Source: Candidatus Nitrosothermus koennekii (lineage in GTDB: Archaea > Thermoproteota > Nitrososphaeria > Nitrososphaerales > Nitrosocaldaceae). Taken from it: a stretch of DNA of 24,000 nucleotides. Made by a program: the position numbers and the translations under genes. How positions within the stretch are numbered: the first letter of the stretch is position 1; each line of letters starts with the position of its first letter. Below are positions 2,430-13,838 of this stretch, piece by piece. The stretch covers positions 35,478 to 59,477 of the forward strand of contig JACAFH010000003.1 of the NCBI GenBank assembly GCA_013538715.1, in the 5' to 3' direction. The notes under the pieces are model-generated. The model saw nothing but the letters and a program-made list of their open reading frames with translations. It searched no databases and was not told the origin of the DNA.

Positions 2430-3095
2430 ATGGAGATAGCAATTAAGCATATTATGCTATTGGTGGAGTTGATAAAAAAGGGAGGAAGATACTCATATAT
2501 TAATATCACTACTACCGAATTGGGTGAAATATTAAACAAATCCCAACAAACAATCTCTAACAATCTTTTAGAGCTAGAAAGAAATAATTATATAGAAAGA
2601 GTAAAGGATGGAAAAGGTTTCAAGATCAAGGTAACAGAGAAATGTAACGATGAATTGTTTAAACTCTTCTTGGTGTTAAAACATGCTCTTGAGGATATTA
2701 AAGAGATAGAGATAAAAGGTATTATAACAAAAGGTATGGGCGAAGGATCTTATTATATATCCCTACCAGGGTATAAGAAACAGTTTATACAGAAGCTAGG
2801 TTTTGAACCATACAGAGGTACATTAAACATAAAACTTGAACCATATTATAGGGGTGTTAAGAGCGTATTAAAGATGCAACCTGGTATATTCATAGAAGGA
2901 TTTAATGATGGAAATAGAACATATGGTTGGGTTAAATGTTATAGAGCAAGCATAGATAGCATAGAAGGGGCTGTATTGATATTAGAGAGGACTCATCATG
3001 ACGATAGCATATTAGAGATCATAGCGCCAGTTAAAATCATGGAGAAGATGAATGTTGACTATGGTTCAACTATTACAGTTAAGATAAGATTCTAA
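2430..3095 (+). CDS. ribK: CTP-dependent riboflavin kinase fused to an N-terminal winged-HTH domain (RbkR-like bifunctional kinase/regulator)
   Basis: 221 aa. The C-terminal ~125 aa (GMGEGSYYISLPGYKKQFIQKLGFEPYRGTLNIKL...GWVKCY...LILERTHH) matches archaeal riboflavin kinase. The N-terminal ~90 aa (TTTELGEILNKSQQTISNNLLELERNNYIERV) is a wHTH domain. Confidence 0.85.
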   Translation: MEIAIKHIMLLVELIKKGGRYSYINITTTELGEILNKSQQTISNNLLELERNNYIERVKDGKGFKIKVTEKCNDELFKLFLVLKHALEDIKEIEIKGIITKGMGEGSYYISLPGYKKQFIQKLGFEPYRGTLNIKLEPYYRGVKSVLKMQPGIFIEGFNDGNRTYGWVKCYRASIDSIEGAVLILERTHHDDSILEIIAPVKIMEKMNVDYGSTITVKIRF

Positions 3096-3751
3096 AAGTT
3101 ATAGATTGATTTACCTAATACCTCTTTGATCTTAGTACTCTTAAGATCTGGTAAGGGGGAATCTAGCCTAACAACGTTTATATTTAATCCTCTCTTTTTA
3201 CATTCTTCTGCTATGAATCTTTCTTCATGAATCTGATCATAACCTAATGCTATTATATTTGGTCTTACATACTCTACGGTCTTGAATATGTCACCTTCTC
3301 TTCCCAATATAGCGGCATCTACAAATCTTAAAGAGTTTACTAGTTCACATCTCGTATTCTCATCGTGTATAGGTTTCTTACCTTTACTTTTTATAGCAGT
3401 GCTATCTCTTGCTATTATAACTATCAATATATCTCCTAACGCTTTTGCTGAGCGTAGAGTATAGATATGCCCTGGATGAATTATATCAAATACACCTCCA
3501 GTTAATACTATCTTTAAGTATTCTCTACCTTTATCAGTTAATCTTAGATCTTTACTTATAAGATCCTTTTTTGTTAATGACTCTATTCTTTCATTTAATA
3601 GTTTTTCATCGTATATCTTATCTGCTAGAGAATCATGAGGTTCTAATGATAATAACCTACAAACGTATAATATACGTAAAATACTGTTATCTATTATATC
3701 TAGCGTTTGCATAATAAATCTTCGTTGATGGGTAATAAAAATTGATAGCAA
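3092..3751 (-). CDS. ribL: FAD synthase (FMN adenylyltransferase) RibL with an N-terminal ~75-aa extension
   Basis: The C-terminal ~140 aa (GGVFDIIHPGHIYTLRSAKALGDILIVIIARDSTAIKSKGKKPI...VDAAILG...IIALGYDQ) is collinear with archaeal RibL and carries the nucleotidyltransferase HxGH motif. The start is ambiguous: ATG at 3751 or ATG at 3712 (MQTLDII...). Confidence 0.85.
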   Translation of the reverse strand: MLSIFITHQRRFIMQTLDIIDNSILRILYVCRLLSLEPHDSLADKIYDEKLLNERIESLTKKDLISKDLRLTDKGREYLKIVLTGGVFDIIHPGHIYTLRSAKALGDILIVIIARDSTAIKSKGKKPIHDENTRCELVNSLRFVDAAILGREGDIFKTVEYVRPNIIALGYDQIHEERFIAEECKKRGLNINVVRLDSPLPDLKSTKIKEVLGKSIYNF

Positions 3752-3866: not shown

Positions 3867-3940
3867 GCCTCGGTAGCTCAGCCTGGTAGAGCGTTTCCTT
3901 GGTAAGGAAAAGGTCGCGGGATCGAAGCCCGCCCGAGGCT
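3867..3940 (+). tRNA. tRNA-Thr (anticodon GGU), no intron, no encoded CCA
   Basis: Cloverleaf folded by hand. Acceptor GCCTCGG (3867-3873) pairs with CCGAGGC (3933-3939). D stem is GCTC/GAGC with loop AGCCTGGTA. Anticodon stem is TTTCC/GGAAA with loop TTGGTAA (anticodon GGT at 3901-3903). The variable loop is AGGTC. T stem is GCGGG/CCCGC with loop ATCGAAG. The discriminator is T at 3940. Confidence 0.9.
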
Positions 3941-10087: not shown

Positions 10088-10999
10088 ATGCATGCTATAA
10101 GAGATCTTAGGATAGAGAAGGATGATAGTATCGATGAGATATTTAATCAGATGCTTGAGAGTGGTGGATTTGTAGCAAAGCATATGGCCCAAGGATATGA
10201 GATATTATATGAAATGATTAAAGATAAAGATTGTACTAAATTTATCTCGTTCGTAGGAGCAATAATAGCGACTGGTTTGAGAGGTATAATAAGAGATATG
10301 GTAAGGTTAAAGATGTTTGATGCAATAGTAACTACATGTGGAGCATTAGATCATGATATAGCGAGATCATTTAAAGAATATTATCATGGAGATTTTAGAC
10401 TTGATGATGAGATATTAGCAGAGAAGAATATACATAGACTTGGGAATGTATTAGTGCCTAAAGAGAGTTATGGAATAATAATAGAGGAGAAGATGCAGGA
10501 TATACTTAAAGGATATAATCGCCAATTAGCCACATATGAACTAACAGAATTGATTGGTAAACATCTTAATGAGAGTTCATTTTTATACTGGGCTAGCAAG
10601 AATAACATACCAGTATTCGTACCTGGAATAATGGACGGTGCTGTAGGGAATCAATTGTGGCTCTATTCTCAACGTAACAAAGGCTTTGGTATAGATCTGC
10701 TGAAAGATGCTAATAAACTATCAGATATAGTATTCGATGCAAAAAGAACTGGAGCGTTAATGATTGGAGGAGGAATATCAAAACACCATACACTTTGGTG
10801 GAATCAATTTAGAGATGGTTTAGATAATGCTGTGTATATAACTACTGCAGAAGAATATGATGGCAGTTTAAGTGGTGCTTTGGTTAGGGAAGCTATATCA
10901 TGGGGTAAAGTAAAGATCAAGGCAAAACAAGTAACTATACATGGTGAGGCCACTATAGTATTACCATTTCTCTTCTCAGCGTTAATCAAGAGGCTTTAG
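10088..10999 (+). CDS. dys: Deoxyhypusine synthase
   Basis: 303 aa and collinear with DHS. Supporting motifs are ESGGF.AKH...G..IL, TTCGALDHDI, MIGGGISKHH and the catalytic-lysine motif EAISWGKVK. Confidence 0.9.
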   Translation: MHAIRDLRIEKDDSIDEIFNQMLESGGFVAKHMAQGYEILYEMIKDKDCTKFISFVGAIIATGLRGIIRDMVRLKMFDAIVTTCGALDHDIARSFKEYYHGDFRLDDEILAEKNIHRLGNVLVPKESYGIIIEEKMQDILKGYNRQLATYELTELIGKHLNESSFLYWASKNNIPVFVPGIMDGAVGNQLWLYSQRNKGFGIDLLKDANKLSDIVFDAKRTGALMIGGGISKHHTLWWNQFRDGLDNAVYITTAEEYDGSLSGALVREAISWGKVKIKAKQVTIHGEATIVLPFLFSALIKRL

Positions 11000-11681
11000 T
11001 ATAAATATACTTTATATACATCTGCACAAACCCACGTTTTATATAATACCTTAAAAGATTATCTTTTAAGAATGTCTGTAGAAAAAGATATAGATTACGC
11101 TCCCTTGAAGATAGATATGCATACCTTATTAATGACGATGCTACCCCTAACATTCTAAACTCTGGTAATATACCTAAACAATATAAGCCTAATAGACTCT
11201 TACTTGAGAGTAAAGCCATACAGCCTACTGTTTTATCCTTAATATTTGCCGTGTACAACTCTAATTCCTTAGCATGACGTAATCTATTCTCCATCTCATC
11301 TCTATAATCTTCAAATGCTACAGAGTATACATCTAACCACTCTTTTGTCTCTTTAACCCTCTCTATCCTTATATGCTCGATACCTTTGATTAGATATGGT
11401 GATTCTAGTAAGAGTGTTGAGATCTTATCATATAGTATATAACCATACCTCTCTAATTCTTTATGCTCCTTATATGCATAGAGATAGATCTTAACATTTA
11501 ACATCTTGCATATACTCTCAAATTCTTCTAAATTGAAAGCATTTGATTGAATATATGCTCTATTAAAGAATGGATCATCACTCATTACTTTATTAGCATA
11601 TATCTTTAAATTATTATCATATCTATTACTAAATAATGATACAAATTTCTCCTCATTCTCTTCCATCTCCTCATAGCTCAA
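10986..11681 (-). CDS. GNAT-family N-acetyltransferase with an extra N-terminal ~110-aa region
   Basis: The C-terminal half has GNAT motif A (LYCLGILPEFRMLGVASSLIRYA). The track start at 11681 is a TTG that overlaps the upstream stop (TTGA). The first in-frame ATG is at 11665 (MEENEEK...). Confidence 0.7.
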   Translation of the reverse strand: MSYEEMEENEEKFVSLFSNRYDNNLKIYANKVMSDDPFFNRAYIQSNAFNLEEFESICKMLNVKIYLYAYKEHKELERYGYILYDKISTLLLESPYLIKGIEHIRIERVKETKEWLDVYSVAFEDYRDEMENRLRHAKELELYTANIKDKTVGCMALLSSKSLLGLYCLGILPEFRMLGVASSLIRYAYLSSRERNLYLFLQTFLKDNLLRYYIKRGFVQMYIKYIYTKAS

Positions 11682-12712
11682 ATCTTTAAACCTATTACAT
11701 CTTCTAATATAGAACCTTTTATAGATTCTATCTTGTTTACTACCTCTTTAGAGTTGAGATTATTCATCTCAATATCAGATCCACCATATCCAATCTCTTT
11801 AACCTTTTTATGAAACATACTTATATCATCTTCTCTAAACTCCAACTCCTCTCTGTAATCTTTTGATAAGAGGTATACTCTTAATGTATTTAGACCATAT
11901 CTTAGAATAGCGTCTCTAACCAATATAGTATTATTCTTACTCTTGCCCATCTTCTCACCATTTATAGTTAATAGATTTATATGAAACCAGAATTTAGGCT
12001 CTTTATTAAATACTCTTAAAATTGCTCTTTGTGCCTCATGATGAGGATATATCAATTCTGTTGCTCCAGCATGCAAAGTATAGATATTAAAATTTGATAA
12101 CGCTATGCTAACGTCTTGTATATGCCACCATGGTAAACCCTTTCCTAACACATTACTCTTTATATAATTTGGAAACTCTTCTCTACCATTCCAAAGCATG
12201 AAATCATATAAACTCCTCTTTCCTTCGATAAGATCTACAGCCTTTAACCTAAACTCTGAGAGATAACCATAATCTTTTATCTTTGTAATATCAAAGTATA
12301 CATTTGATCTGTTTACATAAGCATATCCTTTATCTATTAATTGTAATATATTATTATGTGCTTGAGCAAGATAATCTGATGCTGATGCAAAGATTATATT
12401 TCTTAGATCTATGTTAAGCAATGAAAAATCGTATATAAATTCTCTCTTATATCTATTTATAAACTCTTTATAGTCTATATTAAGCTCTTTGGCTCTCTTA
12501 AAGATCTTTGGATCTATATCTGTTAGTACTACTAGCATCAAAGGTTTATAACCTTCGTATCTTAGATATCTAGCAAATACATCCAATAATACAAATAATC
12601 TAGCATGCCCTAGATGCATATAATCATATAATGTAGGACCGCAAATAACCATCTTTACATCTTTCTCTTTAATCTCTTCTTCCTTTCTAGATGATGTATT
12701 ATAGATCTTCAT
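11678..12712 (-). CDS. Cysteinyl-tRNA-synthetase-like class I ligase, truncated (no anticodon-binding domain), zinc-site residues altered
   Basis: 344 aa. It is collinear with the CysRS catalytic domain: KIYNTSSRKEEEI, ICGPTLYDYMHLGHAR (HIGH), TDIDPKIFKRA, WWHIQDVS (CysRS has WHIEC), HAGATELIYPHHEAQ (CysRS has HHENE), and KMGKS (KMSKS). It ends about 100-120 aa earlier than canonical CysRS. Confidence 0.8.
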   Translation of the reverse strand: MKIYNTSSRKEEEIKEKDVKMVICGPTLYDYMHLGHARLFVLLDVFARYLRYEGYKPLMLVVLTDIDPKIFKRAKELNIDYKEFINRYKREFIYDFSLLNIDLRNIIFASASDYLAQAHNNILQLIDKGYAYVNRSNVYFDITKIKDYGYLSEFRLKAVDLIEGKRSLYDFMLWNGREEFPNYIKSNVLGKGLPWWHIQDVSIALSNFNIYTLHAGATELIYPHHEAQRAILRVFNKEPKFWFHINLLTINGEKMGKSKNNTILVRDAILRYGLNTLRVYLLSKDYREELEFREDDISMFHKKVKEIGYGGSDIEMNNLNSKEVVNKIESIKGSILEDVIGLKI

Positions 12713-12746: not shown

Positions 12747-12965
12747 ATGGAAGAGTCTAGTCTATATGATGAGTTAGAGAGTTTGGAGCTAGATTCAATA
12801 ATAGAGATTATAGATGAATTTAACCGTCACATATACATAACTAGAAGCGCTTATGAATTCTCTATAATGTTTGATGATAGATGGTTTTATAGTAATGATG
12901 TAAATGAAGTTATCAGAATAGTAAAAGAGAATAGTAAAGGCAAGATTAGAGTCTTACTTGATTAA
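12747..12965 (+). CDS. Hypothetical small acidic protein
   Basis: 72-aa ORF with coding-like codon usage and mixed composition. It lies only 34 nt from the divergent CysRS-like gene. Its 3' end overlaps the convergent methyltransferase by 12 nt. I recognise no family. Confidence 0.45.
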   Translation: MEESSLYDELESLELDSIIEIIDEFNRHIYITRSAYEFSIMFDDRWFYSNDVNEVIRIVKENSKGKIRVLLD

Positions 12966-13838
12966 TTTAGCTATTATAAGATCACAGAAGTAAAGAATGT
13001 AAGATCTCTTGTTAATCTTAAGTAACCATGGTATATACTCCTCTTTATCATTTTCTATCTTAAATCCATGAATCTTTAATATCTCTCTAATACCTCTTTC
13101 ATCATATAAAGGCAAAGGGTAACCTTTTGCATCTCTGAAATCATATGGATCAACCAATATAAGATATCCATCTTTCTTTATACTCTTCTTTATTGATTGT
13201 ATTACAACATCTACATCAAAGAGATCTATCACATTTATACAGCTCACGAGATCAAACTCTTTAAATGGTAATGCGAAGAGATCTGCTACGATAAATTCTC
13301 TATTCTTCTTTTTATATTTTCTTGCTCTTCTTATCATACTAAATGATTTATCTATTCCTATTGCTAGATTAGACGATACATTATTTACTATATAACCAGT
13401 CCCGCATCCTATATCTAGATAATTGTTTATAGTAAATACATTTATGGTATCTACAATCTTCTCATAAAAATCTGTATTGATTGAGAGTAAATACTTTATA
13501 TTATCTTCGATTTTACACTCGTATATCTTAAATAAATTACTATATTCTTCATACACATCCATGCTTGTCTTCTTTATATTTTTAGCATGATATCTTAGAT
13601 ATTTCTTCATACTTTCACTAGAATTAACGAATATATCGCCAAGAACTCTACTTCTACTACTAAAATACTTTGATATGTCATCTACAATTATAGCAACGCC
13701 ATCAATGATAGGATATATAGCATTACAATCACAGTGTAGGAAACCTTCTATACAATCTTCATCTCCCTTTATACACTCTAACTCCAATTTACCAGCACAG
13801 ATAATACACTTTATATATGATAGAATATCTACCAGCAT
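12954..13838 (-). CDS. Class I SAM-dependent methyltransferase with an N-terminal Trm112-like zinc ribbon
   Basis: 294 aa. The N-terminus carries C-x2-C ... C-x-C followed by YPIIDGVAIIV, which is Trm112-like. SAM-binding motif I is YLDIGCGTGY. Downstream motifs are DLVSCINVI and GYLILVDP. Confidence 0.75.
   Translation of the reverse strand: MLVDILSYIKCIICAGKLELECIKGDEDCIEGFLHCDCNAIYPIIDGVAIIVDDISKYFSSRSRVLGDIFVNSSESMKKYLRYHAKNIKKTSMDVYEEYSNLFKIYECKIEDNIKYLLSINTDFYEKIVDTINVFTINNYLDIGCGTGYIVNNVSSNLAIGIDKSFSMIRRARKYKKKNREFIVADLFALPFKEFDLVSCINVIDLFDVDVVIQSIKKSIKKDGYLILVDPYDFRDAKGYPLPLYDERGIREILKIHGFKIENDKEEYIPWLLKINKRSYILYFCDLIIAKLIK

Follow-up and report, generated by a model that had tools for sequence, protein, structure and literature searches.

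Organisation of the locus

The sequence analysed here is a 24,000-nucleotide stretch of the Candidatus Nitrosothermus koennekii genome (Nitrosocaldaceae; contig JACAFH010000003.1, positions 35,478 to 59,477), an archaeal chromosome segment of 31% GC that we refer to as the window. Its minus strand carries a two-gene unit, in which a protein of 344 amino acids (aa) derived from cysteinyl-tRNA synthetase (CysRS), hereafter the ligase, is encoded upstream of an acetyltransferase of the GNAT superfamily (Table 1). The pair is real, deeply conserved and uncharacterised. The ligase should be described as a domain-less descendant of the CysRS of its own lineage, with an active site remodelled specifically in ammonia-oxidising archaea (AOA) and a gene coupled to that of a tandem GNAT protein.

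The ligase stop codon TGA (11680-11678) and the GNAT start codon TTG (11681-11679) overlap by 4 nt in the sequence TTGA. The GNAT protein has 231 aa when read from this TTG and 226 aa when read from the first in-frame ATG (11666-11664), which lies 11 nt past the ligase stop. A previous sequence-only reading of this locus had offered that ATG as an alternative start, which stands; its position (given as 11665) and its spacing (12 nt) had to be corrected. Both genes are under purifying selection (dN/dS 0.15 for the ligase and 0.07 for the GNAT gene, against the relative L104, 97% identical), and in L104 both have the same lengths and no frameshifts. The TATA-like box TTTATAAA lies 20 nt 5' of the ligase ATG, so that a leaderless two-gene transcript is likely; judged by archaeal promoter geometry, this box is the candidate promoter.

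Table 1. Coordinates of the ligase–GNAT unit, its motifs and other genes in the window
Feature	Position	Strand	Evidence or remarks
TATA-like box TTTATAAA	12733..12740	-	Candidate, read from sequence
CysRS-derived ligase, 344 aa	11678..12712	-	PF01406; AlphaFold2 model; dN/dS
ICGPT loop	12632..12646	-	C24 (zinc ligand, E. coli C28); G25 and T27 (amino-group binding)
HIGH motif, HLGH, residues 33-36	12605..12616	-	Alignment to E. coli CysRS
WHIQD, residues 196-200	12113..12127	-	W196 and H197 kept; E208 to Q, C209 to D
HHEAQ, residues 224-228	12029..12043	-	H234 kept; E238 to Q
KMSKS motif, KMGKS, residues 254-258	11939..11953	-	Alignment
Tandem-GNAT acetyltransferase	10986..11681	-	GNAT Pfam matches; AlphaFold2; Foldseek; dN/dS
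Acetyl-CoA pyrophosphate-binding motif R-x-x-G-x-A, RMLGVA, residues 176-181	11139..11156	-	C-terminal GNAT half
SAM-dependent methyltransferase	12954..13838	-	Just upstream of the ligase
72-aa open reading frame	12747..12965	+	No family match
HTH-fused CTP-dependent riboflavin kinase	2430..3095	+	
Cytidylyltransferase-like gene	3092..3751	-	
tRNA-Thr(GGU)	3867..3940		Sole tRNA of the window
Arginine dihydrolase-like protein, 411 aa	17763..18998	-	LOR/SDH N-terminal and ArgZ-like C-terminal domains

A CysRS core that ends before the anticodon-binding domain

The CysRS catalytic domain (PF01406) matches ligase residues 12-298 (E 6e-66). The ligase falls 117 aa short of E. coli CysRS, and the entire C-terminal anticodon-binding domain (ABD, about 60-70 aa) is missing, in agreement with the earlier description of a 344-aa core that stops before this domain. 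The AlphaFold2 model (pLDDT 92.6) is composed of a Rossmann core, a CP insertion, an SC fold and a shortened helical bundle. It matches the structures of CysRS and of MshC, the CysRS-derived ligase of mycothiol synthesis, with TM 0.83-0.87, and the fold comparison is uninformative as a discriminator, both kinds of enzyme matching at TM of about 0.85. Against the CysRS family model (cysS, TIGR00435) the ligase scored 242 bits, below the cut-off of 340, compared with 299 bits for a Nitrosopumilaceae relative and 419 bits for L048, a short form from a basal lineage.

The ligase and its short relatives end at the pattern '..LG[LIV]xx', which is the start of the ABD in full-length enzymes and the exact end of M. 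smegmatis MshC ('...DVIGLKI' in the window and '...ALLGVDL' in 3c8z); this common C-terminal boundary upholds the likeness to MshC proposed earlier. The ABD is absent from every short form. A profile of this domain, run over all six frames, found no separate copy in any short-form locus, the window included, and matched only within full-length genes, and a separately encoded ABD nearby was rejected on this basis. One short-form open reading frame of 496 aa (L011, 7695-9185) is longer than its relatives only at the N-terminus, most likely because the first possible start codon was assumed and not through a real extension.

Residues were numbered by a residue-level alignment of the ligase to E. 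coli CysRS (1li5). Two of the four zinc ligands are kept (C28 as C24, H234 as H224) and the other two are replaced (C209 by D200, E238 by Q228), exactly as had been read from the HIGH, KMGKS, WHIQD and HHEAQ motifs. The zinc and cysteine pocket keeps C24, D200, H224, W196 and T64, and has Q at the E238 equivalent.

Distribution and gene coupling

Relatives were collected by a scan of species-representative genomes, of which the best 80 loci were listed and parsed locally, and further loci were added by protein look-up. The closest ligase proteins have 344-355 aa and 50-58% identity (97% for a near-identical relative), and the next belong to a very large family of 374-393 aa and about 40% identity. 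Named hosts are Thaumarchaeota, Nitrosopumilaceae, Nitrosotalea, Nitrosopolaris, Nitrososphaeraceae and Gagatemarchaeaceae. Short forms have 337-441 aa, with WH[IM]QD in AOA and WHIED/HHEAEIA in basal lineages that are not AOA. Full-length forms (456-498 aa, WHIED/HHEAE) come from Desulfurococcales, Sulfolobales, Zestosphaera, Bathyarchaeota and Thermoplasmata, and from three hot-spring metagenome-assembled genomes (MAGs) labelled Nitrososphaerales or Nitrososphaeria.

In 59 of the 71 short-form loci a GNAT gene follows immediately on the same strand, with a median overlap of 4 nt, which answers positively the question of whether the adjacency is conserved in relatives; none of the 16 full-length CysRS loci has an adjoining GNAT gene. 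The coupled lineages include Nitrosopumilaceae, Nitrosotalea, Nitrososphaera, Gagatemarchaeaceae and groundwater lineages. Loss of the ABD and attachment of the GNAT gene appear together, apparently at the same evolutionary point, and nearly all sampled relatives of AOA have an ABD-less CysRS that is probably co-expressed with an acetyltransferase of two domains. Where short-form loci lack the GNAT gene, they either stand at a contig end, as in a few cases, or belong to a Nitrosopolaris-type subclade whose neighbouring genes are unrelated. In this Nitrosopolaris/Nitrososphaera subclade (L014, L016, L017, L019, L021, L022, L024, L036, L042, L045) the ligase has 378-382 aa and E238 is replaced by the hydrophobic L, V or I, and its neighbours encode an ABC ATPase, PAP2, a histidine kinase or an aldo-keto reductase.

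A tandem GNAT protein as partner

GNAT Pfam families match residues 119-221 of the partner, and its AlphaFold2 model (pLDDT 93) has two GNAT-like halves. The acetyl-CoA motif and a conserved Tyr lie in the C-terminal half, and DDPFFN is a conserved motif peculiar to the N-terminal half. G179 is invariant in both family alignments (A2 with 21 members, A3 with 19); R176 is at least 90% conserved in both, and A181 reaches at least 90% in A2 and is absent from the conserved list of A3. The best Foldseek matches are tandem GNATs (3frm, VipF, 4ius, MAB_4324). MshD, the acetyltransferase of mycothiol synthesis, was matched at rank 14 (2c27; E 1.3e-9, TMq 0.64, 13% identity) and again as 1ozp, so that the model has the tandem architecture of MshD, and the matches also include the glucosamine N-acetyltransferase 5kf1. 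The aminoacyl-tRNA-dependent enzymes MprF, FemX and Sba18/Sbb17 rank lower (E about 1e-7, TM about 0.5). The 26 matches obtained as family relatives come from Thaumarchaeota only, the nearest named one from Nitrosocaldaceae. No NCBIfam family was matched (E up to 0.01), and the protein is therefore not a member of the MshD family.

Active-site remodelling and rate of evolution

As a reference for conservation we used 118 full-length CysRS (102 representatives and 16 related archaeal enzymes), considered positions conserved in at least 90% of them, and compared these with the 71 short forms. The equivalents of C28, G29, T31, T68, D69, W205, H206, H234 and H235 are 99-100% conserved in the short forms, and the residues of the ICGPT loop are invariant in both sets (71/71 and 118/118). 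The roles of the loop and of the cysteine-pocket residues have been described from MshC and CysRS structures (PMC9736012).

The zinc site had been considered altered at two ligands, and only one of these changes is derived. Asp at position 209 is found in 41 of the 118 full-length enzymes (25 of the 102 representatives and all 16 related archaeal ones); it is thus an ordinary variant and no sign of a new function. E238, on the other hand, is present in 118/118 full-length CysRS and in 10/10 basal short forms; MshC has S at this position, and the AOA short forms have H, Q, L, V, I or Y (H in most AOA, Q in the window). WHIED occurs widely among full-length archaeal CysRS, those of Desulfurococcales and Sulfolobales included, and is usually accompanied by HHEAE or HHECE (L010-L089; P0157-P0305). 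The HHECE of some full-length enzymes places a Cys two residues before E238, where it might act as a substitute ligand.

At positions that are 98-100% conserved in full-length CysRS, the AOA forms carry K185N, R202(I/V/L), G204W, E208Q, F232Y and changes at E238 and D72/K73. K185, R202, G204, E208 and E238 are all invariant in the 16 related archaeal enzymes (K or R at 185) and all replaced in AOA; within the short clade only the AOA part has Q at 208. MshC keeps R202, G204 and E208, has R at 185, and has lost K73, F181 and E238. The clade of the window has two further changes: N66V, at a position otherwise 100% conserved, and a helical domain about 35-40 aa shorter than that of the 386-aa relatives. 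Conserved basic residues were uninformative about loss of tRNA binding, most of them being kept in MshC as well.

The short family evolves faster than full-length CysRS. Short forms from different AOA families are 41-44% identical to each other, compared with 65-70% for inositol-1-phosphate synthase (Ino1) and 60-66% for deoxyhypusine synthase (DHS) of the same loci, and with 49-55% for full-length CysRS of different phyla. Even core motifs vary: KMSKS has become KMSNS, with loss of the second lysine, in some short forms of Nitrososphaeraceae (L013, L015, L045, P0013, P0023, P0113), and WHIQD is replaced by WNIQD in L001 and by WNTSD in L055. Such variation is unusual for a housekeeping synthetase.

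Proposed function

We propose, with a probability of roughly 0.45, that the two genes encode a cysteine-activating ligase and an N-acetyltransferase that work in the manner of MshC and MshD on an amine acceptor other than tRNA. The ligase would bind cysteine on the zinc site formed by C24, D200 and H224, form cysteinyl-AMP via the HIGH and KMGKS motifs, and hand the cysteinyl group to an amine acceptor. The co-translated tandem GNAT would acetylate the free alpha-amino group of the attached cysteine, using acetyl-CoA, and the product would be an N-acetylcysteinyl compound, possibly a low-molecular-weight thiol. The ligase would be the thaumarchaeal lineage's own descendant of a WHIED-type CysRS, which lost its ABD as it acquired the adjoining GNAT gene. 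That the two proteins function together on activated cysteine is suggested by the coincidence of domain loss with GNAT gain, the conserved coupling, the tandem-GNAT partner and the MshC-like build, as well as by the accelerated evolution and the remodelling of the active site. The cysteine substrate, the acceptor and the acetylation of the product are what we infer from this combination. As to whether the ligase of such a module also still charges tRNA-Cys, we would give even odds.

Probable vertical descent and the case for a minimal CysRS

A rival explanation, less likely in our judgement, is that the ligase is a plain minimal CysRS, the sole one of the organism, which charges tRNA-Cys without an ABD. 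The GNAT would in that case be functionally unrelated and share the operon only, perhaps as a protein acetyltransferase among translation genes, or it would be an accessory subunit that assists the binding of tRNA. Several observations fit this explanation and weigh against the small-molecule function that we propose.

The first group concerns descent. In a neighbour-joining tree the short forms are one clade, sister to the full-length WHIED enzymes, and the order within the clade tracks thaumarchaeal taxonomy. No assembly occurred twice among the best 80 loci and none had both the short and the full-length form, nor did the forms overlap in eleven more NCBI assemblies identified by exact protein look-up (three short, eight full-length); a second CysRS was not found for any sampled genome with a short form. 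Among the best 120 relatives of a full-length Nitrososphaeria CysRS, none was named as an AOA genus, the names being Nitrososphaerales (hot-spring MAGs), Methylarchaceae, Bathyarchaeota and Aenigmarchaeota. Gene order agrees: in the L050 group the full-length CysRS gene has Ino1 8 kb upstream and the DnaG primase gene 3 kb downstream, and the DnaG protein is 57% identical to that of the window, whose gene lies 9 kb from the short gene. Both of these genes are therefore within about 10 kb of that for DnaG, and Ino1 is found near the L050 full-length CysRS gene and near the short gene in the window's relatives. Given the single clade, the shared neighbours and the lack of any assembly with both forms, the ligase looks like a vertical descendant of the archaeal full-length WHIED CysRS and not an added copy, and the label of paralogue used in the sequence-only reading is not supported. 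Descent, shared neighbours and mutual exclusion of the two forms in sampled genomes all argue that the ligase is still a CysRS.

The second group concerns the enzyme and its surroundings. HIGH, KMSKS and the cysteine-pocket residues are retained. Basal short forms (383-437 aa) have the GNAT partner and yet keep the full canonical active site; they lie above the cysS cut-off, as L048 does, and bear the NCBI name cysteine--tRNA ligase. Conversely, the Nitrosopolaris-type subclade has the ligase and no adjacent GNAT gene. No MshA- or MshB-like acceptor-making genes were identified within the 24-kb window, where NAC, DHS and a PUA protein are translation-related neighbours. CysRS* of Desulfobacterales is a natural ABD-less CysRS that charges the SelC* tRNA (PMC9437257), and domain loss alone thus does not end charging. 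SepRS has been reported only for a thaumarchaeal group that is not AOA (PMC5424206); AOA stand outside these carriers, so the ligase may have to make Cys-tRNA.

Other observations count against a plain CysRS. ABD loss and GNAT gain coincide and translational coupling persists across the class, full-length CysRS diverge less between phyla than the short forms do within AOA, and K185, R202, G204, E208 and E238 are all replaced in AOA, four of these being kept even in MshC. The structural neighbours of the GNAT include enzymes that acetylate small-molecule amines (MshD and the glucosamine N-acetyltransferase), and together with the acetyl-CoA motif this makes a passive subunit unlikely.

That the ligase is the only CysRS homologue of its genome seems to us a toss-up. 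The scan covered its best 80 loci and not whole genomes, with patterns blind to bacterial-type CysRS with 'YVCG...FPHHE', and AOA may therefore still have a foreign second CysRS. Two candidates for an additional copy were dropped. The Nitrososphaeraceae subclades were rejected as in-genome paralogues by the same absence of repeated assemblies among the best 80 loci, and P0168, the best canonical WHIEC match, was a dead end as a hidden thaumarchaeal CysRS; it is located on an archaeal contig of 50.7% GC.

We also set aside the nearness of Ino1 as evidence for an inositol-containing product. Ino1 is not in the window. It is near the short ligase gene in 38 of the 71 loci, similar to SMC (34) and DHS (33), and it also stands beside full-length CysRS; the nearness hence predates the truncation, and it is probably inherited gene order that says nothing about the product. 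Between Ino1 and the full-length CysRS gene, an L050-type genome (L094, 5154-9541) has genes for an epimerase and for glycosyltransferases of the GT4 and GT2 families, and GT4 and GT2 genes occur upstream of the short ligase gene in L007 (90-3223). GT4 is the family of MshA; these genes could equally be surface-glycan genes.

Possible action on Cys-tRNA or on another amino acid

It is improbable, in our view, that the ligase charges tRNA-Cys and that the GNAT acts on the resulting Cys-tRNA, either by N-acetylation or by a cysteinyl transfer like those of Fem, MprF or Sbb17. Such a system would accommodate both a single CysRS and a functional tie to the GNAT, and MprF, FemX and Sba18/Sbb17 are indeed among the Foldseek matches; but they come well below the acetyl-CoA-dependent tandem GNATs, and the R-x-x-G-x-A acetyl-CoA loop is conserved in the GNAT. 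An aSelB-like homologue of Methanosarcina reportedly binds Cys-tRNA-Cys. Thaumarchaea encode an aSelB-like elongation-factor homologue as well (PMC3037878), and it might be connected with unusual handling of Cys-tRNA in their lineage.

A change of substrate in the AOA part of the short clade to an amino acid other than cysteine, through the remodelled pocket (G204W, E208Q, R202L, E238Q and, in the window, N66V), is the least probable explanation: several 98-100% conserved positions around the substrate pocket are replaced and N66, otherwise 100% conserved, is changed in the window clade only, but C28 and H234, the zinc ligands that select the thiol, are kept, as are position 209, W205, T68 and D69, the His238 of most AOA could itself bind zinc, and no positive evidence points to another amino acid.

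Other genes of the window

The housekeeping genes of the window encode a DnaG-type primase, a riboflavin kinase, UbiA, UbiD, a Clp1-type kinase, NAC, a PUA protein, DHS, SMC, subunit F of the ATP synthase and subunits of NADH dehydrogenase. The methyltransferase encoded upstream of the ligase has a Trm112-like zinc ribbon at its N-terminus (residues 3-49 match NCBIfam Trm112_arch); the same arrangement is found in L001, L011 and L104 and is absent from most other lineages. Between the two genes, and overlapping the 3' end of the methyltransferase gene, lies a divergent 72-aa open reading frame with 45-55% identity in the near relatives L001-L003, weak similarity in L009 and L011, and a dN/dS of 0.22 against L104. 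Both are conserved only in near relatives of the window, and their membership in a pathway with the ligase is unsupported.

On the other side of the unit, the 3' ends of the GNAT (-) and DHS (+) genes are convergent and overlap by 14 nt (10986-10999), a pairing seen in 33 of the 71 related loci. The riboflavin kinase gene likewise converges with the cytidylyltransferase-like gene, overlapping it by 4 nt, and the tRNA-Thr gene comes after the latter. The gene for the arginine dihydrolase-like protein adjoins that of ATP synthase subunit F.

Significance

AOA are among Earth's most abundant microbes. They are sensitive to both oxidative and nitrosative stress, and little is known of their thiol chemistry: the reviews consulted list only genes for ergothioneine and gamma-glutamylcysteine for AOA, and state that mycothiol and the mycothiol genes are absent from archaea. 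We tentatively suggest, at somewhat less than even odds, that Thaumarchaeota including ammonia oxidisers make an unrecognised small molecule of the N-acetylcysteine type by means of a ligase derived from their own CysRS and a dedicated tandem GNAT, independently of MshC. If so, the pair is a second, independent invention of the route from cysteine ligase and N-acetylase to a protective thiol. In the sharpest version, which is possible, this domain-less ligase would at the same time be their sole CysRS and serve both translation and a small-molecule pathway. If instead the enzyme is a plain synthetase, a whole archaeal class relies for its cysteine codons on a CysRS that is remodelled, evolves fast, lacks the ABD and has an Asp/His-type zinc site.

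Comparison with known systems

MshC and CysRS* are the only CysRS-derived proteins described in the literature consulted, and we found no description of the pair or of the thaumarchaeal CysRS oddity in the full-text literature searched, outside which many subscription papers fall.

The immediate sisters of the ligase are the full-length archaeal WHIED/HHEAE enzymes of Desulfurococcales, Sulfolobales, Bathyarchaeia and hot-spring Nitrososphaeria, with which it has Asp209 in common and 38-48% identity. These enzymes keep K/R185, R202, G204, E208 and E238, whereas the AOA ligases have all five changed; they have an ABD and no GNAT partner, whereas the ligase has the reverse. CysRS* resembles the ligase in having no ABD. 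It differs in being a true extra copy coupled to SelB*/SelC* homologues, while the partner of the ligase is the GNAT, and no SelB*/SelC* homologues are present among the window neighbours.

Like the ligase, MshC is derived from CysRS, lacks the ABD with the same boundary after the helical bundle, and keeps the residues that bind the cysteine amino group and zinc; like the AOA short forms, it has lost the E238 zinc ligand. Its zinc is held by C43, C231 and H256, and the ligase has Asp (D200) at the equivalent of C231; MshC also keeps R202, G204 and E208, which are changed in the AOA ligase. MshD, like the GNAT, is a tandem protein with an active C-terminal domain that binds acetyl-CoA, the conserved R-x-x-G-x-A of the GNAT suggesting the same for its modelled C-terminal half. 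The translational coupling of the ligase and GNAT genes is a difference from MshC/MshD. The small-molecule tandem-GNAT N-acetyltransferases 3frm, VipF, 5kf1 and PamZ are also built of two halves with the acetyl-CoA motif in the C-terminal one, although identity to the GNAT is only 10-18% and the N-terminal DDPFFN is a conserved motif of the GNAT's own family.

Actual membership in the MshC and MshD families, which the sequence-only reading had brought into play, is contradicted by the scores: the MshC model (TIGR03447) gave the ligase 133 bits against a cut-off of 485, the ligase clusters with archaeal CysRS, and the GNAT has no NCBIfam match. A phmmer search of PDB gave 207 bits for the archaeal CysRS 8qhp and 94 bits for MshC, and this closer relation to archaeal CysRS argues for an independent origin. 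We conclude that the likeness of the pair to mycothiol chemistry arose independently.

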